Source of the DNA: Bacteroidota bacterium
GTDB lineage: Bacteria > Bacteroidota > Ignavibacteria > UBA10030
Assembly: GCA_025454835.1 (NCBI GenBank)
Contig: JALONQ010000004.1
Location: 111,144 to 175,143, forward strand
DNA length: 64,000 nt
Reading direction: 5' to 3'
The notes beneath the pieces are model-generated. The model ran no database searches, was not told the origin of the DNA, and saw only the letters and a program-made list of their open reading frames with translations. Shown piece by piece: positions 4,816-58,992 of the stretch; position 1 is the first letter of the stretch, and each line of letters begins with the position of its first letter. Position numbers and translations under genes: made by a program.

Positions 4816-4837
4816 GGGAGTAACCTTCTTGTTGGAG

Positions 4838-4950
4838 AAGATGGCACGCAGAGTCGCAGAGACCACAAAGGTTGCAGAGAAGAGAGAGTGCCAACCCTTC
4901 CATCTCCGCTAGCTTCGCGGCCTCTGCGTTTCTGCGTGAGACGCGTCTAT
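4838..4950. repeat. palindromic intergenic repeat element, CGCAGAG subfamily, in the maeB 5' leader
   Basis: The sequence is ggcacgcagagtcgcagagaccacaaaggttgcagagaagagagag...ccatctccgc...cctctgcgtttctgcgtgagacgcg. It has the same architecture as the copy at 19378-19492 (cacgcagcgacgcagagaccgcagcgatcgcagagaagagata...ccatctttcctctgcgtccactgcgtctctgcgag). Confidence 0.55.
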
Positions 4951-19377: not shown

Positions 19378-19492
19378 CGAGAAAGAAGCGTTACACGCAG
19401 CGACGCAGAGACCGCAGCGATCGCAGAGAAGAGATATGGGGGAGACCGTCCTTTCCATCTTTCCTCTGCGTCCACTGCGTCTCTGCGAGATT
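19378..19492. repeat. palindromic intergenic repeat element, CGCAGAG subfamily, in the NtrC-regulator 5' leader
   Basis: It is gaagcgttacacgcagcgacgcagagaccgcagcgatcgcagag ... ctctgcgtccactgcgtctctgcgag. The left arm is the reverse complement of the right arm. It shares the GAAGCGTTACAC head with the CACAGAG-subfamily copies at 25783 and 28527. Confidence 0.6.
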
Positions 19493-22310: not shown

Positions 22311-23489
22311 ATGGACGACTCCTCCTCCCTCTTCCCTCACGACCTGCCGGACCAGTTCGGCGCGCGCTTCGGACGTCCGCCCGAAGTGATCGCATCGGCC
22401 CCGGGACGCGTGAACCTCATCGGCGAGCACACCGACTACAATGAGGGTTTCGTGTTGCCCGTTGCCATCGACCGCCGCACCTGGGTGGCCATGGCCGCTC
22501 GGGAGGACGGCCGTCTCCATTTTCGATCAGAGACGACGAACGAGGATGTCGAGATCGGGCTCCAGGATGCTGACCATCATCGCCGCAAAGGGTGGTCGTC
22601 TTATCCTGCCGGGATCGTCGCGCTCCTTCGCCAGCAGGGCGTGCCGGTCGGAGGCATGGACGTGCTCATCTCGAGCACCGTCCCGCTCGGCACCGGGCTC
22701 AGTTCGTCGGCGGCCTTGGAGGTCTCGATGGCAACTGGGACGCTTGCGCTCGCCGGGAGTTCCCTGCCGTCGCAGGAACTCGTCCGCCTCTGCCAGCGGG
22801 CAGAGTGGGACTGGGCCGGCGTGCAGTGCGGCATCATGGACCAAACGATCGCCGTCTCGGGAAAATCGCGCGCGGCGCTCTTGATCGATTGCCGCACACT
22901 CGACACCGAGACCGTGCCGCTCGATCCAAGCCTTCAGCTTGTCGTCTGCGACACGGGCATGCCCCGGACGCTGGCGACGTCCGAGTACAACAAACGCCGG
23001 GGTGAATGCGACCAAGCCGTGCGCGAGCTCGGGCGCCATGCAGCCGGGCTGACGTCGCTCCGGGACGTGACGCAGGAGCAGCTCTCGTTATTCGGCCGTC
23101 ACCTCTCCGAGACCCCCCTTCGCCGCGCACGACACGTGGTCACGGAGAACGAGCGTGTCCTGCAAGCCGTCGACGCGCTCTGGCTGCGTGATCACCGTTC
23201 GCTCGGAAAGCTGCTGGGGGCTTCGCATGCCAGTCTGAGAGATGACTACCAGGTGAGCTGCGCTGAACTCGACGTCATGGTCGCCATCTGCCAATCGGTG
23301 CCGGGCGTGTGTGGCGCCCGCATGACCGGAGCCGGGTTCGGCGGTTGCGCGTTGGCTCTCGCCACGCCCGGTGCGGTCGGCGCATTGACAGAGGCCGTCA
23401 TGAGCCGGTATCCGCAACACACCGGCCGCACACCGTCGGTCGTCACCTGCACGGTGGGCGACGGGACCCGTGCGGTACGCGTCGGATGA
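22311..23489 (+). CDS. galK: galactokinase
   Basis: The galactokinase signature GRVNLIGEHTDYNEG and the GHMP kinase ATP motif (PLGTGLSSSAALEV) are present. Confidence 0.9.
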   Translation: MDDSSSLFPHDLPDQFGARFGRPPEVIASAPGRVNLIGEHTDYNEGFVLPVAIDRRTWVAMAAREDGRLHFRSETTNEDVEIGLQDADHHRRKGWSSYPAGIVALLRQQGVPVGGMDVLISSTVPLGTGLSSSAALEVSMATGTLALAGSSLPSQELVRLCQRAEWDWAGVQCGIMDQTIAVSGKSRAALLIDCRTLDTETVPLDPSLQLVVCDTGMPRTLATSEYNKRRGECDQAVRELGRHAAGLTSLRDVTQEQLSLFGRHLSETPLRRARHVVTENERVLQAVDALWLRDHRSLGKLLGASHASLRDDYQVSCAELDVMVAICQSVPGVCGARMTGAGFGGCALALATPGAVGALTEAVMSRYPQHTGRTPSVVTCTVGDGTRAVRVG

Positions 23490-23514
23490 CGGCCCCGAAC
23501 TTACTTTTCTCGCA

Positions 23515-25779
23515 ATGAAGTTCCTCGCCCATCTCATCATCGGCACGCTTGCCGCCGCTGCTGCCGCGGCTCAGCCCGTGACGCTCCGGCTGGTGAACTG
23601 GGCCACGCCGGAGGAGATGGATCTGGACCGGAAGGCCATTGTGCTTTTCGAGGAACGCCATTCTGGCATTCGGGTCCTTTACGAACCGAACCCCGGACGG
23701 CAATACGAAGAGAAGATCCTCACCGCGCTGGCCGCCGGAGCGCCTCCCGACGTCTTTCTGCTCGATTCGAAGCTCATCCCAACCTTCACGAACAAAAGGG
23801 TCCTGCTCGACCTGACGCCGTACATCGGTCCACTCGGCATCGACACGACGCAGTGGTTTCCGAATGTCCTCGCGATCGGCCGACGCAACGGCGGGCTCTA
23901 CGCGTTTCCGAAGGGTTTCACGCCGCTCATGATGTTCTACAACCGCGCGCTCTTCCGGGAAGCGGGGATCGCGGAGCCGACACCATCGTGGACATGGGGA
24001 GATCATCGCCGGATCGCCGCGTCGCTCACCCGTGATCGCGACGGCGACGGAACGCCCGACCAATACGGCACGTCGTTCACGAACTACTACTACTTCTGGA
24101 TCGTCTGGGTCTGGAGCGCGGGGGGCGATGTTGTGACCGAGGACGGACTGCGTGCGACCGGTGCGCTGACGTCGGCGGCGACGGAGGAGGCGATCACATT
24201 CCTTACGGACCAGCGGACGCGCGACCGGGTGGCGCCCGACGTCGGCAGTTGGGTGCAGTCGGAGCGGACCGGCACGAATGCACAGCTCTTCGCCAACGGC
24301 CGTGTGGCGATGAGTCTGGATGGTCATTGGCGGTTGCCGACCTACGCGCGATATGTGCGCGAGGGGAAGCTCGACCTGGGCGTTGCACCGTTGCCGCTGC
24401 ATCCGAGCGGCCGGAAGGTGAACGTCATGTACCAGAGCGGATGGTGCGTACCTGTCGGCGCGTCGCATCCGCGTGAGGCGGCGATGCTTGCGGCGTTCAT
24501 GGCCGGGCCGGAGGCGGCGCGGATCCGCTCGTCACAGCATCTGGAGATCCCGGCCGTGCGGTCCGTTGCGGAGGAGATCGTCGCAATCGACCCATACGGC
24601 TGGGAGCGCCCGTTCGTGGAGGAAGTGCCGTTCTGCCGTCAGCCATGGGGTTCGGTCATCGAGCGGTTCAGCGAGATCGAGTGGACGCTGCAGGACGCGG
24701 TCGACGACGTCGTCTTGAACGGCGTGCCGGTCAACCAAGCGCTCGCGAAGGCGGCGCTCAAAGTGGACCGGCAGTTGGAGGAGATCAGGTCGCACGCGGC
24801 GTTCACGTTTGCGCCCATCGAAGAGCATTCGGAGATCTTACAGACGCTGGCGGCCGTGGCGGCGGCGGTGGCGGGGGCAATGTTCCTTCTCTATAGAAGA
24901 GCGCGGCGCAGGGACCGGCCGGCGGCCTTGCGGTCCATCGGATTTCTGGCGCCTTCGCTCATTCATCTGACCGTCTTCCTCGCCACGCCGATGGTCTTCT
25001 CGGCGTATCTCAGCCTCCACCGCTGGGACCTCGTCGTACCCGACACGCCGTTCGTCGGGCTCGAGAACTTCGTCGTGATGTTCGGCGACGAGAGCTTCTG
25101 GAATGCTCTGCGGAACACGCTTCTGTTCTCTCTGAACGTTCCATTCGGTCTGGCGTTGGCCCTGGGCGTCGCTTTGTTGTTGCATCGGCGCTTCACCGGC
25201 GTGGCGGTCCTCCGGACCATCTACTTCCTTCCGAGCGTCACGTCGTTCGTGGCCATTGCCCTCGTGTGGATGTGGATCTACCATCCGACCTTTGGCGCGG
25301 CCAACTATCTCCTGTCGCTCCTCGGCCTGCCGCCGATTCCCTGGCTCAACTCCACGCAGACGGCGATGCTGAGCGTCGTCATCTTTACGATCTGGCTGGG
25401 GATGGGCTACCAGATGGTGGTCTTCCTGGCGGGACTGCAGGGCATTCCCGAGGAGTACTACGAAGCGGCCCGCATGGACGGAGCCACGGCGTGGCAGCGG
25501 TTCCGGCGCGTGACGTTTCCGTTGCTGATGCCGACGACGTTCTTCCTGCTCATCACCTCGCTCATCTCGTCGTTCCAGGCCTTCACGTCGATCTACGTCA
25601 TGACGGCCGGCGGGCCCGTGGGAAGCACCGACGTGATCGTCTACCATATCTACCAAGCGGCGTGGGAGCAACTGCGGATGGGGTACGCGTCGGCGATGGC
25701 GTGGGTGTTGTTCGTGCTGATCCTGGCGGCGACCTGGGTGCAGTTCCGGTTGGTGGGGAGGGGTGTGGAGTACTCTTAG
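23515..25779 (+). CDS. carbohydrate ABC transporter substrate-binding protein fused to permease (MalE/UgpB-like + MalF/UgpA-like)
   Basis: The N-terminal ~430 aa is a periplasmic sugar-binding domain with a signal peptide (MKFLAHLIIGTLAAAAAAAQ). The C-terminal ~300 aa is a six-TM permease with the EAA loop (EAARMDGATAWQRFRRVTFPLL). The whole is one continuous frame. The ORF-track start at 23470 uses GTG; 23515 is the ATG. Confidence 0.8.
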   Translation: MKFLAHLIIGTLAAAAAAAQPVTLRLVNWATPEEMDLDRKAIVLFEERHSGIRVLYEPNPGRQYEEKILTALAAGAPPDVFLLDSKLIPTFTNKRVLLDLTPYIGPLGIDTTQWFPNVLAIGRRNGGLYAFPKGFTPLMMFYNRALFREAGIAEPTPSWTWGDHRRIAASLTRDRDGDGTPDQYGTSFTNYYYFWIVWVWSAGGDVVTEDGLRATGALTSAATEEAITFLTDQRTRDRVAPDVGSWVQSERTGTNAQLFANGRVAMSLDGHWRLPTYARYVREGKLDLGVAPLPLHPSGRKVNVMYQSGWCVPVGASHPREAAMLAAFMAGPEAARIRSSQHLEIPAVRSVAEEIVAIDPYGWERPFVEEVPFCRQPWGSVIERFSEIEWTLQDAVDDVVLNGVPVNQALAKAALKVDRQLEEIRSHAAFTFAPIEEHSEILQTLAAVAAAVAGAMFLLYRRARRRDRPAALRSIGFLAPSLIHLTVFLATPMVFSAYLSLHRWDLVVPDTPFVGLENFVVMFGDESFWNALRNTLLFSLNVPFGLALALGVALLLHRRFTGVAVLRTIYFLPSVTSFVAIALVWMWIYHPTFGAANYLLSLLGLPPIPWLNSTQTAMLSVVIFTIWLGMGYQMVVFLAGLQGIPEEYYEAARMDGATAWQRFRRVTFPLLMPTTFFLLITSLISSFQAFTSIYVMTAGGPVGSTDVIVYHIYQAAWEQLRMGYASAMAWVLFVLILAATWVQFRLVGRGVEYS

Positions 25780-25782
25780 CGG

Positions 25783-25850
25783 GAGAAGCGTTACACAGAG
25801 ATCCACCGAGCTTTCACAGAGGTCTACAGAGCGCGTGACGATGTGAAGTG
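25783..25850. repeat. palindromic repeat element, CACAGAG subfamily (partial copy)
   Basis: gaagcgttacacagagatccaccgagctttcacagaggtctacagagcgcgtgacg. Confidence 0.5.
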
Positions 25851-25907
25851 GGACTTTGTCTGAACTTTGGTACTTTGTAAGCAGTCACTTTTTCAAGTAG
25901 GGGGGAT

Positions 25908-26288
25908 ATGACAACGCAACGAGATCCGCTGACCCATTCGATTATTGGTTGCGCAATCGAGGTGCATCGCGTGCTCGGACCTGGCCTGTTGGAATCGGCA
26001 TACGAAGCGTGCCTGATTCATGAGCTCACTCGGCAAGGCCTACCAGTTGACCGTCAGGTATCGGTGCCAGTTGAATTCAAGGGCATGGTGCTCGACTGCG
26101 GCTAGCGCTTGGACGTGCTTGTGGATGACTCCGTCATCATCGAGATCAAAGCGATCGATTTACTGCTTCCAGTGCACACGGCCCAACTGCTCACATATAT
26201 GCGCTTCGCCAAAAAGCGCGTCGGACTCCTGCTCAATTTCAACGCACCGTCCCTCCGCCAAGGGCTCAAAAGGTTCGTCATGTAACTC
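25908..26288 (+). pseudogene. GxxExxY-family (PD-(D/E)xK-like) gene interrupted by an in-frame TAG at 26103-26105
   Basis: The ORF reads MTTQRDPLTHSIIGCAIEVHRVLGPGLLESAYEACLIHELTRQGLPVDRQVSVPVEFKGMVLDCG*. The same frame then continues as [46 protein letters not shown].... The TAG sits where the family has a conserved Tyr (..DCGYRLDLLV..), consistent with TAY to TAG. TAG is used as a real stop elsewhere, for example at the end of the SBP-permease gene. Confidence 0.6.
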
Positions 26289-26335
26289 TGTGGGTCTCTG
26301 TGCCCGCTCTGTGGAACTCTGTGCCACGCTTCTCA
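26283..26335. repeat. palindromic repeat element, CACAGAG subfamily (right-arm copy) in the pfk leader
   Basis: ctctgtgggtctctgtgcccgctctgtggaactctgtgccacgcttctc, ending in the CGCTTC terminal inverted-repeat half. Confidence 0.55.
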
Positions 26336-26357
26336 TTCGTCGACCTGGAGAACCTAC

Positions 26358-27461
26358 GTGTCCACCATCAAGAAGATCGCCATCAGTACCGGTGGCGGTG
26401 ATGCACCGGGCTTGAACGCTGTCATCCGTGCGGCCGTTATTGCCGCCATCAATCGGGGATGGGAGGTCGTCGGGATCCGCGACGGTTACAACGGCATCCT
26501 TTTGCCCAAGCAGTATCCGCAGGGCGGGGTCTTTGCGCTCACGCGACGCGAGGTCAGGGGTATCACGCATCTGGGCGGCACCATCCTCGGCACGACAAAC
26601 AAGGGCAATCCGATGAACTATCCCGTCCAGCAGCCGGACGGGACCTTCAAAGAGACGGACCGGACCGGCGAGTTGGTCGACGGCATGAGAAAGCAGGGCA
26701 TCGACGCGCTCATCAGCATCGGCGGCGACGGCTCGCTGACGATCGCGAACGCCATCGCCCAGAAGGGCATGAAGGTCGTCGGGGTCCCCAAAACGATCGA
26801 CAACGATCTGGACCGTACCGTCATGACCTTCGGCTTCGACACAGCCGTGTCGTTCGCCACGGAATGCATCGACCGGCTGCACTCGACGGCCGAATCGCAT
26901 CGGCGCGTCATGGTGGTGGAAGTGATGGGACGGTATGCCGGGTGGATCGCCCTGAACTCCGGCATCTCGGGAACGGCCGACGCCATTCTGATCCCGGAGA
27001 TCCCGTATGACATCGAAAAGGTGGCCGACAAGATCCGGGCGCGGGAAAAGGGGGGATCTCACTTCTCCATTGTCGTTGTGGCCGAGGGGGCCATGGCCAA
27101 AGGTGGTTCTCGGGCGGTCATCGGCAACGAGGTCGGCCGTCTGGAACGCCTCGGCGGGGCCGGTGAACGGGTGGCCAAAGAACTGCAGGCGGCCACCGGC
27201 AAGGAGAGTCGGTGCGTCGTGCTGGGCCATCTCCTCCGCGGCGGGTCGCCGACGACCTTCGACCGGCTGATCTCGCTCCGGTTCGGCGCGGCCGCCGTGC
27301 GAGCGCTGGATGAAGGCCAGTCGGGCGTGATGGTGGCACTCGACCCTCCGGCCGTTCGGTATGTGCCGTTGTCCGAGGCCACGCATCGCATGAAAGTGGT
27401 CCCGCTGGATTGCGATACCATCTTGACCGGGAGAGATCTCGGGGTGTGCTTCGGGGATTGA
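26358..27461 (+). CDS. pfkA: 6-phosphofructokinase
   Basis: PFK family motifs are present (GGDAPGLNAVIRA; ISIGGDGSL; PKTIDNDL; MGRYAGWIAL). Confidence 0.9.
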   Translation: MSTIKKIAISTGGGDAPGLNAVIRAAVIAAINRGWEVVGIRDGYNGILLPKQYPQGGVFALTRREVRGITHLGGTILGTTNKGNPMNYPVQQPDGTFKETDRTGELVDGMRKQGIDALISIGGDGSLTIANAIAQKGMKVVGVPKTIDNDLDRTVMTFGFDTAVSFATECIDRLHSTAESHRRVMVVEVMGRYAGWIALNSGISGTADAILIPEIPYDIEKVADKIRAREKGGSHFSIVVVAEGAMAKGGSRAVIGNEVGRLERLGGAGERVAKELQAATGKESRCVVLGHLLRGGSPTTFDRLISLRFGAAAVRALDEGQSGVMVALDPPAVRYVPLSEATHRMKVVPLDCDTILTGRDLGVCFGD

Positions 27462-27700
27462 AAGAAGCGGGACACAGAGATCCACAGAGGAAAAGAGGAG
27501 TTCCGCCGAGAACATGTACCGTTTTTCTCTGTGGGTCTCTGTGCTACTCTGTGTAGCTCTGTGACATGTTTCTCTTCGCTGTGATCAGACGAAGCGGGAC
27601 ACAGAGTTCCACAGAGGAAAAGAGAAGTTCCACGAAGGAAGATATGAATCGCTCTGTGGATCTCTGTGCGGTCTCTGTGGGTCTCTGTGTCATGTTCCTA
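27461..27700. repeat. two tandem full-length palindromic repeat elements, CACAGAG subfamily
   Basis: Copy 1 is gaagcgggacacagagatccacagaggaaaagaggagttccgccgagaac...ctctgtgggtctctgtgctactctgtgtagctctgtgacatgtttctcttcgc. Copy 2 is gaagcgggacacagagttccacagaggaaaagagaagttccacgaaggaag...ctctgtggatctctgtgcggtctctgtgggtctctgtgtcatg. CACAGAGTTCCACAGAG is the reverse complement of CTCTGTGGAACTCTGTG. Confidence 0.7.
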
Positions 27701-27708
27701 ACTGGGGC

Positions 27709-28524
27709 TTGATCTTGCTGCTCCGCACTTCCAAATTCCTCCTCCTCACCGGCCTCGGCCTGACCATGCTCCTTCCGTTTGTCTGGATGCTCAGCACGGC
27801 GCTGATGACCGATGCGGAGGTGTACCAGTTCCCGCCGCGGTTTCTGCCGGCCGAATGGCGCTGGTCCAACTTCGCCGAAGCGCTGACGATGCAGCCGTTC
27901 GGCCGGTTCTTCCTGAACTCTCTCGTTGTTTCGTTGGCCGCCACGGCAGGCCAGGTGCTCTTTTGTTCGATGGCGGCCTACGCGTTCGGTCGTCTGCGCT
28001 TTCCGTGGCGCGACCGGGTCTTTGCAATCTACCTGTCGACCATGATGGTCCCGGCGATCGTAACGATCATTCCGGCCTTCCTGATCATCAGTTCCTTCGG
28101 CTGGATGAACAGCTACCAGGCCCTCTTCAGCCCTTTGCTCTCATCGGTCTGGGGGATCTTCTTGCTCCGGCAGTTCTTCCTGACGATCCCGCGAGACCTC
28201 GAAGATGCGGCGCGCATGGATGGGGCCGGAGATCTGGCGGTGTTTTTCCGCGTGATCGTGCCCCTTTCCAGGCCGGCGCTGGCGACGCTGGCGATCTTTG
28301 CCTTCATGGGGTCGTGGAAGGACTTCCTCTGGCCGCTGCTTGTGACGAATCGGATCGACATGCGCACGGTGGAGGTCGGGATCGCCGGGTTCAACTCGAT
28401 GTACGCCACCGATTGGCCGCACCAGATGGCGGCAGCCGTCGTGGTGCTGATCCCCGTGGTGACCGTATTCTTGCTCGCGCAGAAGCATTTCGTGCGGGGG
28501 ATCACGATGACGGGACTCAAATAG
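27709..28524 (+). CDS. carbohydrate ABC transporter permease (MalG/UgpE-like)
   Basis: It has six TM helices and the EAA motif (DLEDAARMDGAGDLAVFFRVIVPL). Confidence 0.85.
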   Translation: MILLLRTSKFLLLTGLGLTMLLPFVWMLSTALMTDAEVYQFPPRFLPAEWRWSNFAEALTMQPFGRFFLNSLVVSLAATAGQVLFCSMAAYAFGRLRFPWRDRVFAIYLSTMMVPAIVTIIPAFLIISSFGWMNSYQALFSPLLSSVWGIFLLRQFFLTIPRDLEDAARMDGAGDLAVFFRVIVPLSRPALATLAIFAFMGSWKDFLWPLLVTNRIDMRTVEVGIAGFNSMYATDWPHQMAAAVVVLIPVVTVFLLAQKHFVRGITMTGLK

Positions 28525-28526
28525 TG

Positions 28527-28625
28527 AAGCGTTACACAGAGGAAAAGAGAAGTTCCACGAAGGAATATGTCTATTCCACTCTGTGGGTCTCTGTGACATC
28601 TCTGTGGAACTCTGTGTCACGTTTT
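28527..28625. repeat. palindromic repeat element, CACAGAG subfamily
   Basis: gaagcgttacacagaggaaaagagaagttccacgaaggaatatg...ctctgtgggtctctgtgacatctctgtggaactctgtgtcacg. Confidence 0.65.
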
Positions 28626-28652
28626 TCCCTTAGACCTCACGCCTGACTGAAT

Positions 28653-31205
28653 ATGACCTTGCGAACTCTTCTCCTGTCAGCAATTACCGCATCGCTGGCA
28701 ACCGCCCAGCCAAACCTTCCCTCTTTCAGGATCGAGCCGAACGATCTGCTCCTCTCGCGACCGGCGCAGGCGGGGACCTACTTCGACAAGGTCGGCCGGA
28801 AGTTCGCGGTCCTCGGCACCGAAAGCGGTACGTTCGAGGCATGGGCGTATCCGCTCAAGCTCGTCCGCAATGCCGAACTCAGCTTCTTTCTCGGCAGTTC
28901 CACCGAGCCGGTGCTGGCCAAGGACATTGTGCGGACGGTCGAAGTAACGCCCGAAGTGACGACGCTGACCTACACGTATCAGTCGTTCACGCTCCGCGTC
29001 CACTATCTGACGCCCATCGAGCAGCCGGGCGCGTATCTGCTGCTGGACCTCCGCTCGACCGAACCGCTGACGATCGTCTGCTCGTTCATTCCTGTGCTGC
29101 AGCCGATGTGGCCCGCCGGGCTCGGCGGTCAGTCGGCCAGATGGTTGGACGACCTGAAGGCCTACCAGATCAGCGAACCCACGAGGAAGAACACGGCTTA
29201 CATCGGGTCGCCGATGGGAAGCGGCATGTCGTATACGCCAGCCCACATGCTCTCCGACCGTCCGAGCCAGTTCAAGATCGTCATCGACAAGCCCGAGACC
29301 GTGCGCGGCAAGCTCATCCCGATCGTCGTCGCCGGCGGGCGCGGACCGCGAGATTCCATCCGGGCGACCTATCAGCGGCTGGTCTCGGAGCCCGAGCTTC
29401 ACTACCGCAACGCCGTGCAGCATTACCGGAACCTGCGAGCGTCCACGGTACGCATCGCCACGCCGAACCCGGAGATCAATCTGGCCTTCGAATGGGCGAA
29501 GGTCGCGTACGACAATCTGTTCGTCCGGAATCCTGACGTGGGGCTGGGCATGGTTGCCGGCCTCGGTCTGTCGGGCACGAGCGGACGGCCGGGCTTTGGT
29601 TGGTTCTTTGGCGGGGATGCGTACATCAACTCCTTCTCGCTCAACTCGTACGGCGCTTCGAACGCAGCCCGCGATGCGCTCCTGTTCACCCACCAATGGC
29701 AGCGCGAGGACGGTAAGATGGCGCACGAGCTGACGCAGGCCGCCGCCTACGTCGACTGGTGGAAGGACTATCCGTACGGCTACATCCACGGCGATACGTC
29801 CCCCTTCTATGTATGCGCGGTGTGGGACAACTTCCGACACACCGCCGACTCGGCGTTCGTTCGCGAACACTGGTCGGTCGTGCGGAAGGCCTATGATTGG
29901 TCGCTGGCCACGGACGAGGACGGCGACGGATTGATGGATAACAAGAAGGCGGGGCTGGGCGCCCTGGAGTACGGACCGCTCACCGAGATCCAATCGGACA
30001 TCTATACGGGCGCCGTGTGGGTTCGCGCGGCGGCCGTGATGCCGTCGCTGGCCCGCATCGTCGGCGACACGCTCTTCGCGCAATCGGCTGAGACGTACAG
30101 CGTCAAGGCTGCCAAAGCGTTCGACCGGAGGTTCTGGGACGAGCGGAATCAACAGTATGCCTACGCCTTCACGTCGCGCGGACAGCAGGTGGACATCGTA
30201 TCACCCTGGAATTCTGTCGGGCTGATGTGGGAACTCGGCGACCCGGCCCGCAGCGTCAAGTCGCTGTTGAAGCTCAATTCCGCGGAACTCTCGACCGACT
30301 GGGGGATCCGCAGCCTCTCGAACAAGAGCAAGTACTACGAGCCGCTCAACTACAACTACGGAGCGGTGTGGCCGTTCCTCTCGTCATGGGTGGCGACGGC
30401 ACAGTTCAAGCACCATCTGCTCCTGCAGGGGTACGCCACGCTCATGGCATCGGTGCGCCACACCTTCGACCACGGACTCGGCGTGATCACAGAGGTCTTC
30501 TCGGGCTCGCAGAACATCTGGCCGCAGGAGGCGGTGGCCCACCAGGGCTTCAGCTCGGCCAGCGTGGTGCTGCCGCTCATGCGGGGACTCGCTGGGCTCG
30601 AGGTCGACGCGCCGCGGCGGACCGTCCACTTCTCACCGCATCTCCCCGCCGACTGGGACCGGCTGACGCTGCAGAACATCAGCGTGGCGGGCAACACCGT
30701 CGCGCTGGAGTATTCACGGACACGGACAAAAGCGACGGTCAAGGTCCGGTCGATCGGCGCTCAGCCGGTGCAGGTGGTCTTCGCGCCGGCATTGGGCATC
30801 GGCACGGGCGTGGGCAAGGCGCGGGTCGACGGACGCGAGATCGCCTACCGGCTCATCGTGTCGTCGCAGACGGTCCAGCCGCTGATCGAGGTTCCCGCCG
30901 GAGCGGAAACGACCGTCGAAGTGGAACTCCTGCCGACGGTGGAGCTGCTGCCTCCGCCCGTCACTACCACGACGGGAGCGCCGAACCGCTCGCTCAAGAT
31001 CCTCGCGATCAACTTCAAGGACAAGCAGTTGAAGGTGAGCGTGGAAGGGCTTGCTCGGGAGACCTACGAGTTGACGATCACGAACGACGACCTGCTCCAA
31101 TCCGTGAGCGGCTGTAGGCGAGAGGGACGTAAGCTGTTCCTGATGATGCCCGAAGGACCGGCGGAGGAGTTCGTGCGGTCGGAGTTCATGTTGACAGTCC
31201 GGTGA
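28653..31205 (+). CDS. secreted six-hairpin glycosidase, amylo-alpha-1,6-glucosidase (GDE_C)-like
   Basis: It has a signal peptide (MTLRTLLLSAITASLATAQ). The catalytic core is (alpha/alpha)6-type (GFGWFFGGDAYINSF...LFTHQWQREDGKMAHE...DGDGLMDN...NYGAVWPFLSSW). The family was assigned by eye. Confidence 0.6.
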   Translation: MTLRTLLLSAITASLATAQPNLPSFRIEPNDLLLSRPAQAGTYFDKVGRKFAVLGTESGTFEAWAYPLKLVRNAELSFFLGSSTEPVLAKDIVRTVEVTPEVTTLTYTYQSFTLRVHYLTPIEQPGAYLLLDLRSTEPLTIVCSFIPVLQPMWPAGLGGQSARWLDDLKAYQISEPTRKNTAYIGSPMGSGMSYTPAHMLSDRPSQFKIVIDKPETVRGKLIPIVVAGGRGPRDSIRATYQRLVSEPELHYRNAVQHYRNLRASTVRIATPNPEINLAFEWAKVAYDNLFVRNPDVGLGMVAGLGLSGTSGRPGFGWFFGGDAYINSFSLNSYGASNAARDALLFTHQWQREDGKMAHELTQAAAYVDWWKDYPYGYIHGDTSPFYVCAVWDNFRHTADSAFVREHWSVVRKAYDWSLATDEDGDGLMDNKKAGLGALEYGPLTEIQSDIYTGAVWVRAAAVMPSLARIVGDTLFAQSAETYSVKAAKAFDRRFWDERNQQYAYAFTSRGQQVDIVSPWNSVGLMWELGDPARSVKSLLKLNSAELSTDWGIRSLSNKSKYYEPLNYNYGAVWPFLSSWVATAQFKHHLLLQGYATLMASVRHTFDHGLGVITEVFSGSQNIWPQEAVAHQGFSSASVVLPLMRGLAGLEVDAPRRTVHFSPHLPADWDRLTLQNISVAGNTVALEYSRTRTKATVKVRSIGAQPVQVVFAPALGIGTGVGKARVDGREIAYRLIVSSQTVQPLIEVPAGAETTVEVELLPTVELLPPPVTTTTGAPNRSLKILAINFKDKQLKVSVEGLARETYELTITNDDLLQSVSGCRREGRKLFLMMPEGPAEEFVRSEFMLTVR

Positions 31206-31286
31206 AAGCTGATGAGGTGAAGACGGGAGTGGTAAGAAATAGATTCTGAGTCAGAAGTAGTAGATACAGATCAAGTAAGGGGGGGT
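31206..31286 (+). promoter_or_regulatory. AT-rich leader carrying the conserved TCAAGTA-G6 motif upstream of four-helix-bundle gene 1
   Basis: ...gtcagaagtagtagatacagatcaagtaagggggggtATG. Paralogous leaders lie at 33972-34060 and 25850-25907. Confidence 0.4.
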
Positions 31287-31661
31287 ATGGACAAAGTATT
31301 CAAGGCGCGTTTGTATGCGTTCACGCTTCGGTTGATCTCGTACGTCCGATCGTTGCCTTCGGACTTCGTCAACCGCAGGATGGGAGATCAACTAATCAGG
31401 AGCGGCACGAGTATCATCGCCAACATGACAGAAGGCGGATCGGCCGCAAGCCGACGAGACTATGCCAACTATACCAATCACGCGCTCAAATCGGCCAACG
31501 AGACCCATCTCTGGCTGTCGCTCCTTCAAGATTCCGGGTTGAGAACAGCAGAGTCAGAGTGGTTGATGCGTGAAGTCACGGAGATCGCCCGCATCCTGGC
31601 GGCAACGCTGATCACACTTCGACGCTCCTTACGAAATCAGTCAACGAGGCCGCAACCCTGA
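31287..31661 (+). CDS. four-helix-bundle protein (TIGR02436 / '23S rRNA intervening-sequence protein' / Avd-like family), copy 1
   Basis: MDKVFKARLYAFTLRLISYVRSLPSDFVNRRMGDQLIRSGTSIIANMTEGGSAASRRDYANYTNHALKSANE. It is about 80% identical to the copy at 34061. Confidence 0.75.
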   Translation: MDKVFKARLYAFTLRLISYVRSLPSDFVNRRMGDQLIRSGTSIIANMTEGGSAASRRDYANYTNHALKSANETHLWLSLLQDSGLRTAESEWLMREVTEIARILAATLITLRRSLRNQSTRPQP

Positions 31662-31688
31662 AGCCGCTTTCTTTTTCACTTCAACTTC

Positions 31689-33971
31689 ATGCCTTCTAAC
31701 TTTTCTCCTCTCTCCCTCCTCACTCGTCCCGACAAGTGGTATCTCGGGGGCGGCAACCGCCTGCTCTACGCTCCCGCCTTCCCGCTCCACCGCTCCACGC
31801 CGGGATTGTGGGACACGGCTCACTATTACAACTATCCACTCCAACCGCTCTTCTCGTACGCCATTCTCGCCGATGACGGGCACGAGATCCCGCTTACGCA
31901 CGCTTCGTCTTCATGGCGGCCGGACGGCTGGACGCGCCGCTTTGTGGCCGCCGACAAGACGATCGAACTATCCGAGGTCAGTGTACTCCTGCCGCTCGAT
32001 GTCGTCGTCTCCCGACTCACGATCCGCAATCGCACGTCGCGAGGGCTTCGTCTGCGCGTGGTCGGCTTCACCGCCCGGGAGCATCGCCCCGGCGGGACGA
32101 CGTGGGTCACCGATGCGACAATGGACCGCGCGGCCGCGATCTGGATGCAACACGTGCACCCGGAGAAGCGCCCGGCGCTCGCGATCGGGTGCGCCTTCGG
32201 CTGCGACGGAAGCGGAGTCCGGATCGAAGGCGGGCTCAGCGAGGGGGTCGCGACCCTGCCGTTATGGAGCCACACGCCGTTCTCCGAATCCGTCCGGTCC
32301 CGACGGAAGCCCAGAGGCATTTCAATGGAAGGCGTCACGGCCGAGGGTCATCTCTGGATCTCTGCCGAGCGATCGATCACGCTGCGACCGAAGACCCGGG
32401 CTGTTGTCCACTTCGGCTTTGCCGCATCGTCGAGCGCTGATGAAGCGCGTCAGGCCCTACAGACGGCCATGAGCCGCAAAGATCCCATCGGGCTTTCGAC
32501 GGCGGCGTGGAAGGACCATTTCGCCTCGGTCCCGCAATTCCGGAGTTCCGACCCCTTCCTGACGGCGGCGTATTGGTACCGGTGGTACGGCCTCCGTCTC
32601 AACACCATCTACGGCGGCGAGGGGAACTACGAACATCCCGCGGTGTGCGAGGGGATCGGGTACTTCCGCGCCCCAATTTCCTACAGCGCGCCGTGTCACA
32701 TGCTCGAGAACCGGTGGATGCACGACCCGGACCTCGCTCGCGGCAGCCTGCGGACCTTCATCGCCAACCAGCGCGACGACGGCGGATTCCGCGGCTATAT
32801 CGATGTGAACCATTATCGGCAAGAGATGCATGGGGCGAGCGTGGTCGAGCCCTTCTATCATGCTGACTGGGGCAGAGCGGTGCTGGCACTCGATGCCGTA
32901 CATCCGTCGGACGAATTCCTGACCGAAGCGTATGACGGATTGAAGAAGTACGCGTCGTACTTCGACAAGGAACGGGACGAAGAGGTCAGCGGTCTCTACG
33001 ACATCGACAATCACTACGAGACCGGCCAGGAGTACATGCACCGTTACACAGCGGTGGACCCGAACGCCGACCGGGACAACTGGGGCGAGGTCTTTCGCCT
33101 CAAGGGCGTCGATGTGACAGTGTATCTCTACGAACTGAAGCGCGCCCTTGCGGCGATGGCGCGCCGGCTCGGGAAGGACGATGAGGCGGGGCTTTGGGAC
33201 ATGGAGTCGGACCGGACCCGCGAGGCGGTGCGCACGATCATGTGGGACCCGGTGCAAGAGATGTTCTTCGACGTCGACCCGAAGACCGGACGAAGGACCG
33301 GCGTGAAAGCCGCCACGTGCTTCTATCCGTACCTCACCGATATCGTCACCAGGGGACATCTCACCGGACTCAAGCGGCACCTGCTGTCGCCGAAGGAATT
33401 CTGGACCCCGTGGCCTGTTCCGTCCACGAGCGTCGACGACCCCACCTTCTCGGCCGAGCCGGTCTGGAAGGGAAAGCGGATGAACTGTCCGTGGAACGGG
33501 CGTGTGTGGCCGATGACGAACAGCCACATCATGGAAGCCCTCGCGGCTTCGGCCGGGCGTTTCAACGACCGGCGGCTCGAAAAGGCGGCCTCCGAATTCC
33601 TGTCGAAGTTCATCCGAATGCTCTTTTTCGACCAGGATCCAACGCGTCCGAACTGCTTCGAGCACTACCATCCGTTCACGGGTCAACCGAGCGCCTATCG
33701 CGGTGTGGACGACTACATGCACTCGTGGGTGAATGATCTGATCATTCATCACGTGATGGGCATCCGGGCCGAGCCGGGAGTGGTTCGCGTACGCCCTTTG
33801 TCGATGGGTCTCGCAGAGGCGCGGATCAGCGGGGTCATCATCCAAGGAAGTTCATTCGATGTGTCACTGCGAGACCGGCAGTTCACCGTGTGGCAGGACC
33901 GTCAGATCGTGGGCACGCAGCGGCTCGGGAAGACGATCGAGATACAACTCGAAAGGAGTCAAATATTCTAA
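31689..33971 (+). CDS. cytoplasmic six-hairpin glycosidase (GH63/GH37 'MGH1/trehalase-like' type)
   Basis: A large (alpha/alpha)6 catalytic region is present (YWYRWYGLRLNTIYGG...CEGIGYFRAPISYSAPCH...DDGGFRGYID...NCPWNGRVWPMTNSHIMEAL). There is no signal peptide. The GH family was assigned by eye. Confidence 0.6.
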   Translation: MPSNFSPLSLLTRPDKWYLGGGNRLLYAPAFPLHRSTPGLWDTAHYYNYPLQPLFSYAILADDGHEIPLTHASSSWRPDGWTRRFVAADKTIELSEVSVLLPLDVVVSRLTIRNRTSRGLRLRVVGFTAREHRPGGTTWVTDATMDRAAAIWMQHVHPEKRPALAIGCAFGCDGSGVRIEGGLSEGVATLPLWSHTPFSESVRSRRKPRGISMEGVTAEGHLWISAERSITLRPKTRAVVHFGFAASSSADEARQALQTAMSRKDPIGLSTAAWKDHFASVPQFRSSDPFLTAAYWYRWYGLRLNTIYGGEGNYEHPAVCEGIGYFRAPISYSAPCHMLENRWMHDPDLARGSLRTFIANQRDDGGFRGYIDVNHYRQEMHGASVVEPFYHADWGRAVLALDAVHPSDEFLTEAYDGLKKYASYFDKERDEEVSGLYDIDNHYETGQEYMHRYTAVDPNADRDNWGEVFRLKGVDVTVYLYELKRALAAMARRLGKDDEAGLWDMESDRTREAVRTIMWDPVQEMFFDVDPKTGRRTGVKAATCFYPYLTDIVTRGHLTGLKRHLLSPKEFWTPWPVPSTSVDDPTFSAEPVWKGKRMNCPWNGRVWPMTNSHIMEALAASAGRFNDRRLEKAASEFLSKFIRMLFFDQDPTRPNCFEHYHPFTGQPSAYRGVDDYMHSWVNDLIIHHVMGIRAEPGVVRVRPLSMGLAEARISGVIIQGSSFDVSLRDRQFTVWQDRQIVGTQRLGKTIEIQLERSQIF

Positions 33972-34060
33972 GTAAGAAGTGATAGATACAAATCATGTGG
34001 TGCAAGTAAGACATTCTAAGCAGGAAGTGGTAGATACAGAACATTTGAGGGGGGAACACC

Positions 34061-34438
34061 GTGGATAGGGTCTTTAGGGATCGCCTGTACAAATTCACGC
34101 TTCGTCTGATCGCATACATCGAACCTTTGCCGTCGGATGTCGTCAGCCGTCGAGTCGGAGATCAACTCATTCGCAGCGGAACGAGCGTCATCGCCAACAT
34201 GACCGAAGGCGGTTCGGCGGCAAGCCGACGAGACTACGCCAACTATACCAATCACGCGCTCAAGTCTGCCAACGAGAGCATCTTGTGGCTCTCGCTTCTA
34301 CGCGACTCCGGCCGAGGTGGTCCAGAGTCGGAGTGGTTGATGCAGGAAGCCACGGAGATCGGACGCATTCTCGCCGCCACGTTGATCACACTGCGCAAGA
34401 GCCCAAGAAGGCCGCCTCGGGAATCAGTCAACCCCTGA
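34061..34438 (+). CDS. four-helix-bundle protein (TIGR02436-like), copy 2
   Basis: MDRVFRDRLYKFTLRLIAYIEPLPSDVVSRRVGDQLIRSGTSVIANMTEGGSAASRRDYANYTNHALKSANE. The ORF track gives M, but the genomic codon is GTG. It is preceded by a duplicated leader (agaagtgRtagatacaRa x2, then G6). Confidence 0.75.
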   Translation: MDRVFRDRLYKFTLRLIAYIEPLPSDVVSRRVGDQLIRSGTSVIANMTEGGSAASRRDYANYTNHALKSANESILWLSLLRDSGRGGPESEWLMQEATEIGRILAATLITLRKSPRRPPRESVNP

Positions 34439-34477
34439 GCTTTATCTATGACTTTTTCTCTTTCACCTATCACTTAG

Positions 34478-35788
34478 ATGTCCTCTCCCGATCTCCGTCG
34501 CTCCCTCTCGCTCTTTGACCTTTCGCTCATTGCGATCGGCTCCTCGATCGGTTCAGGCATTTTTCTGACACCCGCGCTCATCGCGCAGTCGTTGGATGCG
34601 CCGATGTGGATCCTTGGAGTCTGGCTGCTGGGCGGCGTGATGGCGCTGTGCGGGGCGTTGACGTTCGCCGAACTCGGTGCGATGCTCCCGCGGGCCGGAG
34701 GGGTGTACGCGTTTCTGACGGAAGCGTACGGCGGCACGGTGGGATTCCTGTATGGCTGGGCGTACTTTCTCGTCGCCAACACCGGAGCGCTCGGTGCGCT
34801 GGCCATCGCCTTCTCAACCTACTTCGGCTACTTCGTCCCGCTCAGTGAGACTGGAACGCTGGCTGTGGCGATCGGCGGGATCATTCTCGTGACGATCATC
34901 AACGTCCTGGGGGTGAAGGCTGGGGGCATCTTCTCCGACGTCTTTACCCTGCTCAAGCTGGCGGGCATCGGCGTGTTGGTCGTGGCAGGGTTCGGCTGGG
35001 GCTCGGCGGCGACGACCGATCTCTTCACTTCGCTTTCCGTCGGCGAAGGGGGGCTGGCGTCTGCCATCACGCTGGCCGCCGTCAGTGTCCTCTGGTCGTA
35101 CGGAGGATGGCAACATGCCACGTTCACGGCCGCGGAGGCCAAGGACCCGCAGCGAACGGTGCCACGCGCTTTGATCATCGGCGCCTCTGTCGTGACGGCG
35201 GTGTATCTCATCACGAACCTCGCCTACCTCTTTCTCCTGACGCCCCAGCAGATGGCCGCATCGCCCCGCGTGGCTGCCGATGCTCTCGCTTCGGTCATGG
35301 GGCCGGTGGGCGGGTCGATCATCGCGCTCACCATCTTCATCTCCACGTTCGGCACGACGGGCATCTACACGCTGACGGCGCCGCGTATCTACTACGCCAT
35401 GGCAGCCGACGGCGTCTTCTTTCGCAAAGTGGCCGAGGTCCATCCCCGATTCCATACGCCGATCTATGCCATTCTCCTCCAGTCGGTCTGGGCGATCATC
35501 CTGCTCCTGTTCTGGGGAACGTACGAGAAGCTCATCTCGTACGTCGTATTCACCGACTGGATCTTCTTTGCGCTGGCCGCCGCGGCGGTCTTTGTCCTTC
35601 GGCGCACGCGTCCGACGGCAGACCGTCCGTACCGAACATTCGGTTATCCGTTCACGCCGGCCCTGTTCGTCCTGCTCGCGTCGCTGTTCGTTCTCTACAC
35701 GCTCGTCGAGAAGCCGCTCGAATCGGGCGTCGGGCTCGCTTTTCTGGCGCTCGGCATTCCCGTGTACCGGATGTGGAGGCGCGCCTGA
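34478..35788 (+). CDS. APC-family amino acid/polyamine permease
   Basis: It has twelve predicted TM helices and the AA_permease N-terminal signature (LSLFDLSLIAIGSSIGSGIFLTPALIA). Confidence 0.85.
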   Translation: MSSPDLRRSLSLFDLSLIAIGSSIGSGIFLTPALIAQSLDAPMWILGVWLLGGVMALCGALTFAELGAMLPRAGGVYAFLTEAYGGTVGFLYGWAYFLVANTGALGALAIAFSTYFGYFVPLSETGTLAVAIGGIILVTIINVLGVKAGGIFSDVFTLLKLAGIGVLVVAGFGWGSAATTDLFTSLSVGEGGLASAITLAAVSVLWSYGGWQHATFTAAEAKDPQRTVPRALIIGASVVTAVYLITNLAYLFLLTPQQMAASPRVAADALASVMGPVGGSIIALTIFISTFGTTGIYTLTAPRIYYAMAADGVFFRKVAEVHPRFHTPIYAILLQSVWAIILLLFWGTYEKLISYVVFTDWIFFALAAAAVFVLRRTRPTADRPYRTFGYPFTPALFVLLASLFVLYTLVEKPLESGVGLAFLALGIPVYRMWRRA

Positions 35789-35955
35789 ACAAAGCAAGAA
35801 CAGTGATCGACACAGAAGAAGGGATGATCAAGGATACAGACATGATGCTTCAATCTGTGACAATCCCATTGTTCGGTGCTATCAGTGTTCCCGCTTCTAG
35901 AAACTCAAGGAGATAGCAGTACATTGACTTTCGACAGGGACGACCTCTTTCATCC

Positions 35956-43966: not shown

Positions 43967-44452
43967 ATGGCGATCATGATCTTTGTGACAGGCGGCACCT
44001 TCGACAAGGAGTACAATGAGCTCAACGGGAAGCTCTTTTTCAAGGATACGCACGTCCATGAGATGCTGACGCTCGGGCGTTGTCATGTGGACACCGAAGT
44101 GCGGACCCTCATGCTTGTCGACAGCCTCGAGATGACCGACGACGACCGCCAGATTGTGCTGGAACACTGCCAAAAGGCGAAAGAAGACCGGATCATCGTC
44201 ACGCACGGGACCGACACCATGGAAGTGACCGCACGTGCGCTGGGGGCGGCGGGGATCCCAAAGACGATCGTGATCACCGGCGCGATGGTCCCGTACAAGT
44301 TCGGCTCGTCGGACGGACTCTTCAACCTCGGTAGTGCGATGGCGTTCGTCCAATCCCTTCCCCACGGCGTCTACGTTGCCATGAACGGTCGATGCTTCCG
44401 ATGGGACCGCTGCACGAAGAATCGGCAGACAGGGGTGTTTGAGGAGGGGTAA
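43967..44452 (+). CDS. asparaginase-like domain protein (161 aa)
   Basis: IFVTGGTFDKEY...RIIVTHGTDTMEVTARAL resembles the asparaginase N-terminal domain (TGGTIAG / HGTDT motifs). Confidence 0.5.
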   Translation: MAIMIFVTGGTFDKEYNELNGKLFFKDTHVHEMLTLGRCHVDTEVRTLMLVDSLEMTDDDRQIVLEHCQKAKEDRIIVTHGTDTMEVTARALGAAGIPKTIVITGAMVPYKFGSSDGLFNLGSAMAFVQSLPHGVYVAMNGRCFRWDRCTKNRQTGVFEEG

Positions 44453-46760: not shown

Positions 46761-46969
46761 GATGCGGGTCGTCGGTGTGCATGGGATGTGCAACGACAGA
46801 GTATACTCCTTGAACCGCCCCTTTGTTACAAGGGTTGCCGCCAGTGCGCCAGCACGATGGAATTGCCCCTTCTTCCGGAATGGTCCGGACGGCGTTCGGC
46901 CCGGATGCACAGGTGCGGTGACGTTTCGCCGGAGCCCGCCGATCCGGGGGGCTGGCGATGATGCGCCGA

Positions 46970-55775: not shown

Positions 55776-55838
55776 CAGTGAACAGTGAACAGTGAACAGT
55801 GAACAGTGAACAGTAAACAGTGAACAGTGGTCAGTTGA
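55776..55838. repeat. heptanucleotide tandem repeat (CAGTGAA) x9 between batA and batB/C
   Basis: cagtgaa x5 perfect, then cagtaaa, cagtgaa, cagtggt, cagttga. It lies in the batB/C 5' leader about 40 nt upstream of its start. Confidence 0.85.
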
Positions 55839-55961
55839 CTGTCGACGGAAGCACTTCGCCGTCGTACGGCATCCAGAGTCCCAAGATCATACCCTATGGA
55901 ATGCTTCCTCCATCTTTCATCTTTCATCTTACATCTCACATCTTGCCTCTCGCTTCTTCAC

Positions 55962-58859: not shown

Positions 58860-58992
58860 CTGAGGTCACATGACGACTCTGTTTTCAAGGAAATTGTCGA
58901 GTGTCGATTGGAGAGTGTCGATCATCGCCGGTCGTCCTCCAAAGTTGACTACCTCAGATATTCGTCAATCGACAATCGTAAATCGACAATTC

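Follow-up and report, generated by a model that had tools for sequence, protein, structure and literature searches.

Small GxxExxY and four-helix-bundle genes as probable cargo of old palindromic cassettes in a Bacteroidota sugar-utilisation operon

In this work, we describe three small genes, lodged in the intercistronic gaps of a sugar-utilisation operon, in a 64,000-nt stretch of DNA from a Bacteroidota bacterium (contig JALONQ010000004.1 of assembly GCA_025454835.1, positions 111,144 to 175,143), referred to below as the window. One of them encodes a GxxExxY protein, a predicted PDDEXK_3 nuclease, and two, 4HB1 and 4HB2, encode four-helix-bundle (4HB) proteins of the type found in the intervening sequences (IVSs) of 23S rRNA genes. 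We regard it as rather probable that all three are the cargo of long-resident palindromic cassettes of the IVS type, located outside rRNA genes. Each cassette would comprise short tandem repeats arrayed upstream, a ribosome-binding stretch rich in purines or in G, and an open reading frame (ORF) of about 125 codons; a matching inverted array downstream is clear for GxxExxY, weak for 4HB2 and near background for 4HB1. Gene-less hairpins in the window are the ORF-free form of the ORF-bearing element. Long resident at fixed operon junctions in this lineage, the cassettes are vertically inherited and under purifying selection; their anatomy, generality, antiquity and mode of selection were all computed. 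What was found is an instance of something wider than an earlier note on this DNA had described.

Cassettes and hairpins in the window

The GxxExxY gene (25908..26285, plus strand; TIGR04256/PF13366, 147 bits) passes the cutoff of its hidden Markov model profile and features both the GxxExxY motif and the D...ExK catalytic residues. It is enclosed by two arms of 49 nt each, 80% complementary to each other. The left arm (25783..25831, plus strand), with the terminus GAGAAGCGTTACAC, contains four CACAGAG-type units (CACAGAG, CACCGAG, CACAGAG and TACAGAG) spaced by 10–11 nt, and the right arm (26286..26334, plus strand) contains four CTCTGTG units and ends with CCACGCTTCTC. The duplex predicted for the two arms reaches -71.5 kcal/mol, as compared to -44.3 +/- 4.5 for shuffled sequences (z = -6.1). 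Between the left arm and the start codon, the leader (25832..25907, plus strand) contains the block GGGACTTTG-N4-GAACTTTG, followed by the heptamer TCAAGTA (25893-25899) and by a run of six Gs (G6, 25900-25905). The block is kept in three species (25852-25873 in the window, L185:3937-3958 and L186:1479-1500 in two loci from sister species), whose proteins are only about 76% identical, possibly functioning as an internal promoter or as a binding site. For GxxExxY, however, the main cis feature is not the leader but the pair of inverted short-repeat arrays around the gene. The reading frame is not intact: a TAG at 26103-26105 replaces Tyr66, a residue near-invariant in the family, and the catalytic D69, E79 and K81 are encoded 3' of it. 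The orthologues in L185 and L186 have intact frames.

Five significant gene-less hairpins in the window are built from the units of the GxxExxY arms, three of them located in neighbouring junctions of the operon. Hairpins A (27463..27573; -47.6 kcal/mol, z = -4.3) and B (27590..27700; z = -4.1) lie in tandem between the genes for phosphofructokinase (PFK) and the permease, and hairpin C (28527..28627; z = -3.1) between the permease gene and that of an 850-aa glycosidase, GH850; all three are on the plus strand and about 100 nt long. The remaining two are a CGCAGAG variant with a AGAAGCGTTACAC terminus at 19385..19492 (plus strand; z = -6.0), between two minus-strand genes, and a CGCAGAG/CTCTGCG hairpin at 4855..4930 (minus strand; z = -4.7), close upstream of the gene spanning 2509-4866. 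The termini of the GxxExxY element (GAAGCGKKACAC ... GYCAYGYTTC) recur in four of the five, hairpin 4855-4930 having been assigned by its units and fold only. Allowing for up to 2 mismatches, the motif CTCTGTGNNNCTCTGTG is found 13 times in the window, against 0.5 expected. The units of the arms have a 7-nt core (CACAGAG/CTCTGTG) and, at 10–11 nt spacing, a period of about 10 nt. No direct repeat, of the kind expected from a target-site duplication, was found beside the five elements of the window whose ends were inspected.

The two 4HB genes, 4HB1 (31287..31661, plus strand, 124 aa) and 4HB2 (34061..34438, plus strand, 125 aa, GTG start), match TIGR02436 with 78.8 and 69.2 bits (cutoff 24) and PF05635 with 64.0 and 54.2 bits (cutoff 33.8), respectively. 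Since all three small genes exceed curated profile cutoffs, their earlier assignment to IVS-type families is confirmed. The residues R38, S42, N46 and E49, which form a RxxxSxxxNxxE core invariant in the family alignment, are present in both proteins; the core is part of the GxxRxxxSxxxNxxE motif (PMC3936711). An identity of about 80% had been estimated for the two proteins, and the alignment gives 79% over 116 aa. Third-position GC is 0.66-0.67 in the two genes, as compared to 0.79-0.85 in the flanking ones.

The leader of 4HB1 (31234..31286, plus strand) consists of one unit of about 48 nt, which includes AAGTAGTAGATA, TCAAGTA at 31271-31277 and a run of seven Gs (G7) at 31279-31285. That of 4HB2 (33956..34060, plus strand) consists of two such units in tandem, each including AAGTGRTAGATA, and a G6 run at 34049-34054. 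The leader unit proposed in the earlier note is therefore real and indeed doubled in the second copy, the stretch at 31234-31284, with AAGTRGTAGATA, corresponding to both 33956-34006 and 34004-34054. On the other side of the genes, the 4HB1 trailer (31662..31730, plus strand) is pyrimidine-rich, runs into the beginning of the following gene and has only weak complementarity to the leader, and the 4HB2 trailer (34439..34477, minus strand) contains two inverted copies of a 12-nt core of the leader, at 34443-34454 and 34464-34475. This core, a pattern chosen post hoc, has 5 matches in the window against 0.02 expected. The inverted-repeat score of the flanks is 30 for 4HB2 and 20 for 4HB1, as compared to a mean of 18.3 and 16.8, respectively, with the flanks of other loci. 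Neither leader-trailer duplexes (evaluated by RNAduplex) nor folds of the whole 4HB elements of the window were better than those of shuffled sequences. As terminal inverted repeats enclosing an ORF, those in the window are strong for GxxExxY, weak for 4HB2 and marginal for 4HB1.

The similarity between 4HB1 and 4HB2 covers the gene down to its stop codon and some 50 nt ahead of its start codon, and the adjoining glycosidase genes are not similar there; the duplicated unit is therefore the cassette itself. This result disposes of a segmental duplication of the whole region, since the flanking glycosidases are not paralogous at those ends. The two copies differ by a synonymous divergence (dS) of 1.2, and their divergence is at least as old as the species split discussed below.

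Similar G-runs, as had been noted, directly precede the start codon of all three genes, at a distance of 1–6 nt. Among 43 other predicted ORFs of the window, only two, both doubtful and without family match, have a G6 within 20 nt of the start. The description of the leaders as GC-poor also holds (46–53% GC), the window background being 62%, slightly lower than assumed. In contrast, a common leader with TCAAGTA followed by a G-run could not be maintained: the heptamer is found directly before the G-run in two cases out of three, and is absent both from the GxxExxY leaders of sister species and from the orthologous 4HB1 leader, which excludes it as a conserved signal. Much of the upstream leader unit is similarly not kept in orthologues. 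A sequence resembling TCAAGTA, ATCAAGTAA, was seen about 10 nt before the GxxExxY start codon of Bacteroides finegoldii (L198:1440-1503).

Throughout this lineage, no cassette lacks the G-run, as judged from the orthologous or replaced cassettes of sister-species loci L005-L008, L185 and L186: the three GxxExxY orthologues have G6, and the 4HB cassettes have runs from G6 up to G9. A family-wide feature was ruled out, since a run of at least 5 Gs is present in only 2 of 65 other GxxExxY leaders; outside the lineage, purine-rich repeat units (...GGAGG, ...AGAGGA) reach up to the GxxExxY start codon. The idea that the cassettes carry a conserved translation signal of their own thus survives for the G-run within the lineage, but neither for the whole family nor for TCAAGTA. 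As usual for Bacteroidota, most host genes in the window have no Shine-Dalgarno sequence. Pairing of AAGGGGG with the anti-Shine-Dalgarno sequence is possible if one G.U pair is allowed, and the conservation of the G-run would agree with selection for a translation signal, the host's own genes being mostly devoid of Shine-Dalgarno sequences; we infer that the run may be a ribosome-binding signal borne by the cassette and adapted to the lineage.

All these elements are embedded in a run of co-directional, plus-strand sugar-utilisation genes, which spans 23.4–39.3 kb of the window in the order: solute-binding-protein/permease fusion, PFK, second ABC permease, GH850 (a GH116/MGH1-like glycosidase), GH760 (760 aa, MGH1-like), amino-acid permease and GH1112 (a glycosidase of 1112 aa). 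The three small ORFs fill gaps between these genes and, as originally described, are co-oriented with their neighbours. A cassette or a hairpin is found at each of the five consecutive junctions from the fusion gene to the amino-acid permease gene; the sixth junction, between the amino-acid permease and GH1112, contains just a hairpin at 35795-35885, whose fold is not significant. The fusion gene itself is a single ORF of 769 aa (23470-25779), which joins SBP_bac_1 and BPD_transp_1 domains and is kept in L185 (762 aa).

True heptamer arrays occur elsewhere in the window, at 55776-55829 and 58895-58990. The former includes eight near-perfect CAGTGAA heptamers, followed at 55911-55944 by about five CATCTTA, between two minus-strand genes; read on the minus strand, a purine-rich array precedes a pyrimidine-rich one, the two are mutually non-complementary and no ORF lies between them. 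The latter corresponds to inverted arrays (TGTCGAG x4 ... TCGACAA x4) forming a strong hairpin at 58885-58995 (z = -5.1), at the 5' end of a predicted 348-aa ORF with no family match and a third-position GC of 0.61, the start codon of which is probably miscalled. Repeats with a period of 48 or 96 nt (6.6 copies) at 45943-46281, inside the minus-strand gene 45588-46910, are probably a within-protein repeat. A Rfam search over the 64 kb detected one tRNA only, and thus no rRNA, and no RNA family could be assigned to arms or leaders at either gathering or permissive thresholds. Pfam gave no match for seven out of eight ORFs, five with low third-position GC and three others from the window, the eighth (43967-44449) matching Asparaginase. 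A scan of the genome collection with the PFK protein did not retrieve the same species, the nearest match being 75% identical.

The same layout in other bacteria

A survey of GxxExxY genes was based on 80 loci from unrelated metagenomes, reduced to 73 by removal of near-duplicates. CACAGAG is the commonest 7-mer within the 150 nt upstream of the gene, and likewise in the reverse complement of the 150 nt downstream. The density of units fitting the CRCNGAG consensus is 1.89 per 150 nt on the upstream side and drops to 0.13 in a control taken 400 nt further from the gene; downstream, the inverse units reach 1.49 per 150 nt. Discrete unit types may be distinguished among the elements (CACAGAG, CACGAAG, CGCAGAG, CGCCGAG and CACGGAG), and the two arms of an element tend to share the same type: the probability is 0.54, as compared to 0.14 when arms are permuted between loci, a figure which none of 2000 permutations brought up to the observed value. 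Own arms also pair better than arms taken from foreign loci in 56 of the 73 cases (p = 2e-7). On the basis of these sequence comparisons, inverted arms are a general property of GxxExxY genes, most of the 73 being enclosed in this way.

The layout recurs in cultured organisms, such as Bacteroides finegoldii TSDC17.2-1.1, where the GxxExxY gene, at NZ_OY725952.1:15222-15596, lies between radA and a gene for a FAD-dependent protein, and Bernardetia. The encoded protein is about 60% identical across phyla. Extensions of some database proteins (RGAEAQR..., ...PRLGVSAVK) look like translated arms, judging from a few examples back-translated by eye. In a plasmid collection, only 6 GxxExxY and 5 4HB matches were found.

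For 4HB genes, own flanks form a better inverted repeat than the flanks of other loci in 13 out of 14 cases (p = 1e-4). Some of these repeats are almost perfect: a 4HB gene between pheS and pheT (L184 and L194) is bracketed by (AAAATAG)n ... (CTATTTT)n, another, in L123, is flanked by ACATCGA/ACGTCCA arrays, and a third one, at 161812-162168 on plasmid pNFSY06 of Nostoc flagelliforme CCNUN1, is surrounded by (AATTCGT)x4 ... (ACGAATT)x4. Unit sequences vary from element to element, yet agree between the two sides of each. In L123 and in L106 (432-1733), two unrelated metagenome contigs, a GxxExxY and a 4HB gene are found 0.5–2 kb apart, as in the window, too few cases for an association to be claimed.

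At 9 of 10 independent 4HB sites, both neighbours lie on the same strand as the gene, with gaps of 5–360 nt. Besides the two of the window and the one in a Nostoc plasmid operon, these sites lie between genes for an aminotransferase and LptF/G, cysH and cysN, pheS and pheT, MacB and an unknown gene, alaS and a nucleotidyltransferase gene, and a peptidase gene and pyrF. The only exception is a 4HB gene located antisense between cas1 and cas2 in Anabaena; the presence of 4HB genes inside cas operons was taken as a functional link in an earlier survey (PMC3936711).

Mismatches within the arms were also compared for their compatibility with pairing of the sense-strand RNA. G.U-compatible mismatches are 79 and A.C mismatches 93 for GxxExxY, and 15 and 14, respectively, for 4HB. 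With no excess of the former over the latter, a sense-strand RNA stem is not specifically supported.

As to the encoded proteins, 4HB1 retrieves 2RLD from PDB with E = 1e-14 as a single sequence, and the corresponding profile search gives 1.6e-25; XCC0516 (2GSC) is also matched. Both entries contain five chains, and the XCC0516 structure has been described as homopentameric (PMC4990558). The same fold is found in Avd, the accessory protein of diversity-generating retroelements (DGRs), a positively charged pentameric barrel which binds structured RNA (10.1101/2023.10.23.563531; PMC10053308); the 4HB family profile, when run against PDB, did not reach Avd. PADLOC and PHROGs gave only a weak Cas4 similarity for GxxExxY and no match for 4HB, and no 4HB relatives were found in viral contigs. 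Of the two kinds of cargo, GxxExxY is a minimal Cas4/RecB-like PD-(D/E)xK nuclease and 4HB an Avd-like, pentamer-forming bundle. In spite of the homologous barrel, the locus is not a DGR, as had been correctly stated, because the genes annotated up to 10 kb to the left and right of 4HB1 include no reverse transcriptase; moreover, no template/variable repeat pair was found in 25700-34600, where long repeats correspond to the paralogues and the arms only.

Age, selection and turnover

In the sister-species loci L005-L008, the order GH850 – 4HB1 – GH760 is kept, with a protein identity of 87–89% for 4HB1, and in L185 and L186 an intact GxxExxY gene, 75–78% identical, lies between the solute-binding-protein/permease fusion gene and the PFK gene. 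The ratio of nonsynonymous to synonymous divergence (dN/dS) is 0.12–0.16 for the 4HB genes (0.12 for 4HB1 versus its L005 orthologue) and 0.06–0.09 for GxxExxY; values for neighbouring genes fall in the same range, with dS near 1. Synteny in sister species and purifying selection indicate old residents rather than fresh insertions. The mobile cassette suggested in the earlier note does not correspond to a recent insertion, since all three genes are found at the same sites in sister species, at 75–89% identity, and are selected like their neighbours. A check for empty sites in related genomes yielded no clean one.

Stability of location does not mean that the elements are invariant, since repeat units have occasionally been gained or lost and whole cassettes occasionally replaced. 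In L005-L008, only the first 100 nt or so of 4HB2 remain, and beyond them lies another 4HB gene with an identity of about 55%. Upstream of this replacement are repeats of its own, (GTGAGATTCGAT)x2, and a G6 likewise its own; inverted units follow downstream, and the frame contains a TAG in place of a Tyr codon (FTN*LNHAL). This TAG and the one in the GxxExxY gene of the window have the appearance of recent TAY-to-TAG nonsense mutations. In the more distant L012, a 53%-identical 4HB gene lies upstream of the amino-acid permease gene, with different repeats and no G-run.

Hairpin C contains 1+4 units in the window and 2+2 in the L005 orthologue (L005:12-104), and is absent from L185, where a CGAAATN array takes its place. 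That array (L185:6490-6548) is tandem and one-sided, with the sequence AAATTCGAAATGCGAAATCCGAAATGCGAAAC, and resembles the arms around the 4HB gene of L106. Similarly, after the PFK gene two tandem hairpins are found in the window and one in L185. Several of the sister-species assemblies (L005-L008) break at or near hairpin C, or elsewhere in the locus, which is consistent with the hairpin family being a genome-wide multi-copy repeat. Apart from the G-run, the 4HB1 leader of L005 (2700-2765) is unlike that of the window (31230-31286); its resemblance is to the GATTCG-type units found in that genome's replacement cassette, suggesting that leaders are exchanged or homogenised within a genome.

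The earlier picture of the locus was accurate as to the genes, the leader units, the G-runs and the gaps; its shared TCAAGTA did not hold, and the TAG, the arms and the hairpins were overlooked. As to interpretation, the IVS-type families and the exclusion of both a DGR and a segmental duplication were retained, and a recent insertion, the conserved leader and a family-wide role of the G-run were not.

Possible functions, alternatives and relation to known systems

No promoter was identified for the cassettes, which would probably be transcribed by read-through from the host operon and translated from their own Shine-Dalgarno-like G-run. Besides read-through expression, we infer an action of the encoded proteins on the repeat arms of their own element, as well as any mobility. 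The CRCNGAG core would be the likely recognition site of the GxxExxY nuclease, and the element-specific arrays the likely binding sites of the 4HB pentamer. Such an action would maintain or spread the element, for instance by gene conversion of ORF-less hairpins, and would not serve sugar metabolism. By analogy with the 23S IVSs, on which RNase III acts, double-stranded RNA formed by the arms may in addition undergo processing. The conservation of a 7-nt core across phyla, the variation in number of units and the mismatch data favour protein recognition or DNA homogenisation at least as much as an RNA helix.

Several observations weigh against the cassette reading. There is no target-site duplication and no clean empty site, and the GxxExxY copy of the window is broken by a stop codon. 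The flanks of the 4HB genes in the window are only weakly inverted, those of 4HB1 barely exceeding the between-locus background, and one 4HB gene, that of Anabaena, is antisense to its cas neighbours. GxxExxY genes are co-oriented with their neighbours in 76–80% of cases, which, with crude ORF calling, does not clearly exceed the 70% or so that is usual in bacteria, and the arms, having no G.U-over-A.C excess, do not specifically support an RNA stem. Finally, long syntenic retention under purifying selection fits a function useful to the host at least as well as a selfish one.

Part of the evidence could be accounted for by RNA alone. The arms would form double-stranded stems in the polycistronic transcript, to be cut by RNase III, the ORFs being passengers with no action on the arms; the effect would be to uncouple cistrons or to stabilise the upstream mRNA, as thought for the hairpins of repetitive extragenic palindromic (REP) and short tandemly repeated repetitive (STRR) elements. 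RNase III indeed cuts IVS stems in Coxiella and other bacteria (PMC4990558), and transcript stabilisation was proposed for intercistronic STRR hairpins (PMC2670836). The strong stems predicted here, the occupation of five consecutive junctions (the sixth being non-significant) and the co-orientation of 4HB genes with both neighbours at 9 of 10 sites point in the same direction. A stem alone, however, would keep pairing and not sequence, and the CRCNGAG core is kept across phyla; the G.U bias expected on the sense strand is missing; and the strong purifying selection on the ORFs, together with the cross-phyla identity of GxxExxY, argues that the proteins matter. We therefore hold this explanation to be unlikely, albeit the most serious of the competing ones.

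Synteny and low dN/dS would also be expected if the small proteins were beneficial to the host, acting perhaps as regulators, or in defence or the surveillance of nucleic acids, and simply lay beside ordinary intergenic repeats without being part of elements. The recurrence of 4HB genes inside cas operons (PMC3936711) and the resemblance of GxxExxY to Cas4 agree with such a role. In contrast, ordinary repeats would hardly be concentrated beside the genes and not 400 nt away, nor would their units agree between the two arms and, for 4HB, differ from gene to gene. The genes are found in unrelated contexts (pheS-pheT, cysH-cysN, radA, cas genes, sugar genes), at one site a cassette has given way to another, pseudogenisation is seen and 4HB has no PADLOC match, all of which make this possibility quite improbable. 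As for a chance likeness between the leaders of two paralogues and one unrelated gene, with hairpins acting as ordinary terminators, the loss of TCAAGTA in orthologues and the non-significant leader-trailer pairing of the 4HB genes in the window would fit, but the notion is barely credible, being already contradicted by the G6 found before 3 of 3 cassette starts against 2 of 43 other ORF starts, by hairpins which are 100-nt repeat arrays without T-tracts, and by an architecture supported across phyla by unit enrichment, arm matching and 4HB flanks.

Among the systems closest to the cassettes are the 23S IVSs with S23p ORFs of Leptospira and Coxiella burnetii, which encode proteins of the same PF05635 family, carry the ORF in the loop of a terminal-inverted-repeat stem, feature variable tandem heptamers and an AG-rich stretch before the start, and have a decay-prone ORF (PMC4990558). 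The C. burnetii IVS has AGAAGA and then two or three GACAGAT heptamers ahead of the S23p start codon (to be compared with AGAAGTRGTAGATACAGA in the window); its repeat number differs among strains, and RNase III cleaves the terminal stem, which is 28 bp long (PMC4990558). The elements described here, however, lie between protein genes of an operon, and not in helix 9, 25 or 45 of 23S rRNA, and include a second, unrelated cargo family, GxxExxY, with the same layout.

Cyanobacterial STRRs are tandem 7-nt units forming intercistronic hairpins of unknown function (PMC2670836). Such arrays exactly bracket the 4HB gene of the Nostoc plasmid, although STRRs were described as gene-less; the units of the window, moreover, have a 7-nt core at 10–11 nt spacing, and the host is Bacteroidota-like, not cyanobacterial. 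In the REP/REPIN-RAYT systems, inverted copies of a repeat stand on both sides of one enzyme gene, and the repeat is also dispersed as gene-less intergenic palindromes. This arrangement recalls the one ORF-bearing element and the five gene-less hairpins, four of them with its termini, found within 64 kb. Here, however, the protein is a PD-(D/E)xK nuclease of about 125 aa or a non-catalytic 4HB, not a HUH Y1 transposase (IS200/IS605-like), and the repeats are short-unit arrays rather than a single REP hairpin. Miniature inverted-repeat transposable elements share with the cassettes the terminal inverted repeats, the presence in several copies and the small size, but not the absence of target-site duplications. 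Integron cassettes similarly contain ORFs without an identified promoter, joined to a hairpin-forming site and oriented with host transcription; those described here occur singly at scattered operon junctions rather than in an array at an attI site. The annotation shows neither a transposase nor an integrase within 10 kb of 4HB1 in either direction.

In the searchable literature, we found this architecture nowhere described for copies outside rRNA, and GxxExxY is scarcely mentioned. We know of no function assigned to either the 4HB/23S IVS or the GxxExxY family since the ORFs of IVSs were described in 1993, and both are among the commonest "hypothetical" small-protein families of bacterial genomes. 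We tentatively put forward, as a possibility falling well short of an even chance, that GxxExxY and IVS-type 4HB proteins are the trans-acting partners of dispersed hairpins made of short tandem units, including STRRs and the stems of rRNA IVSs, and that these would together form an undescribed class of palindromic elements found across phyla. Each protein would recognise the units of its own element, and maintain the ORF or spread it into gene-less hairpins, in a way resembling REPIN-RAYT systems but with other enzymes. For annotators, the neighbours of 4HB and GxxExxY genes need not mean a functional link. The inverted arrays and the gene-less hairpins provide a testable hypothesis, that of a protein plus its cognate repeat array, which would link rRNA IVSs, cyanobacterial STRRs and the 4HB genes scattered in cas, pheST and cys operons.

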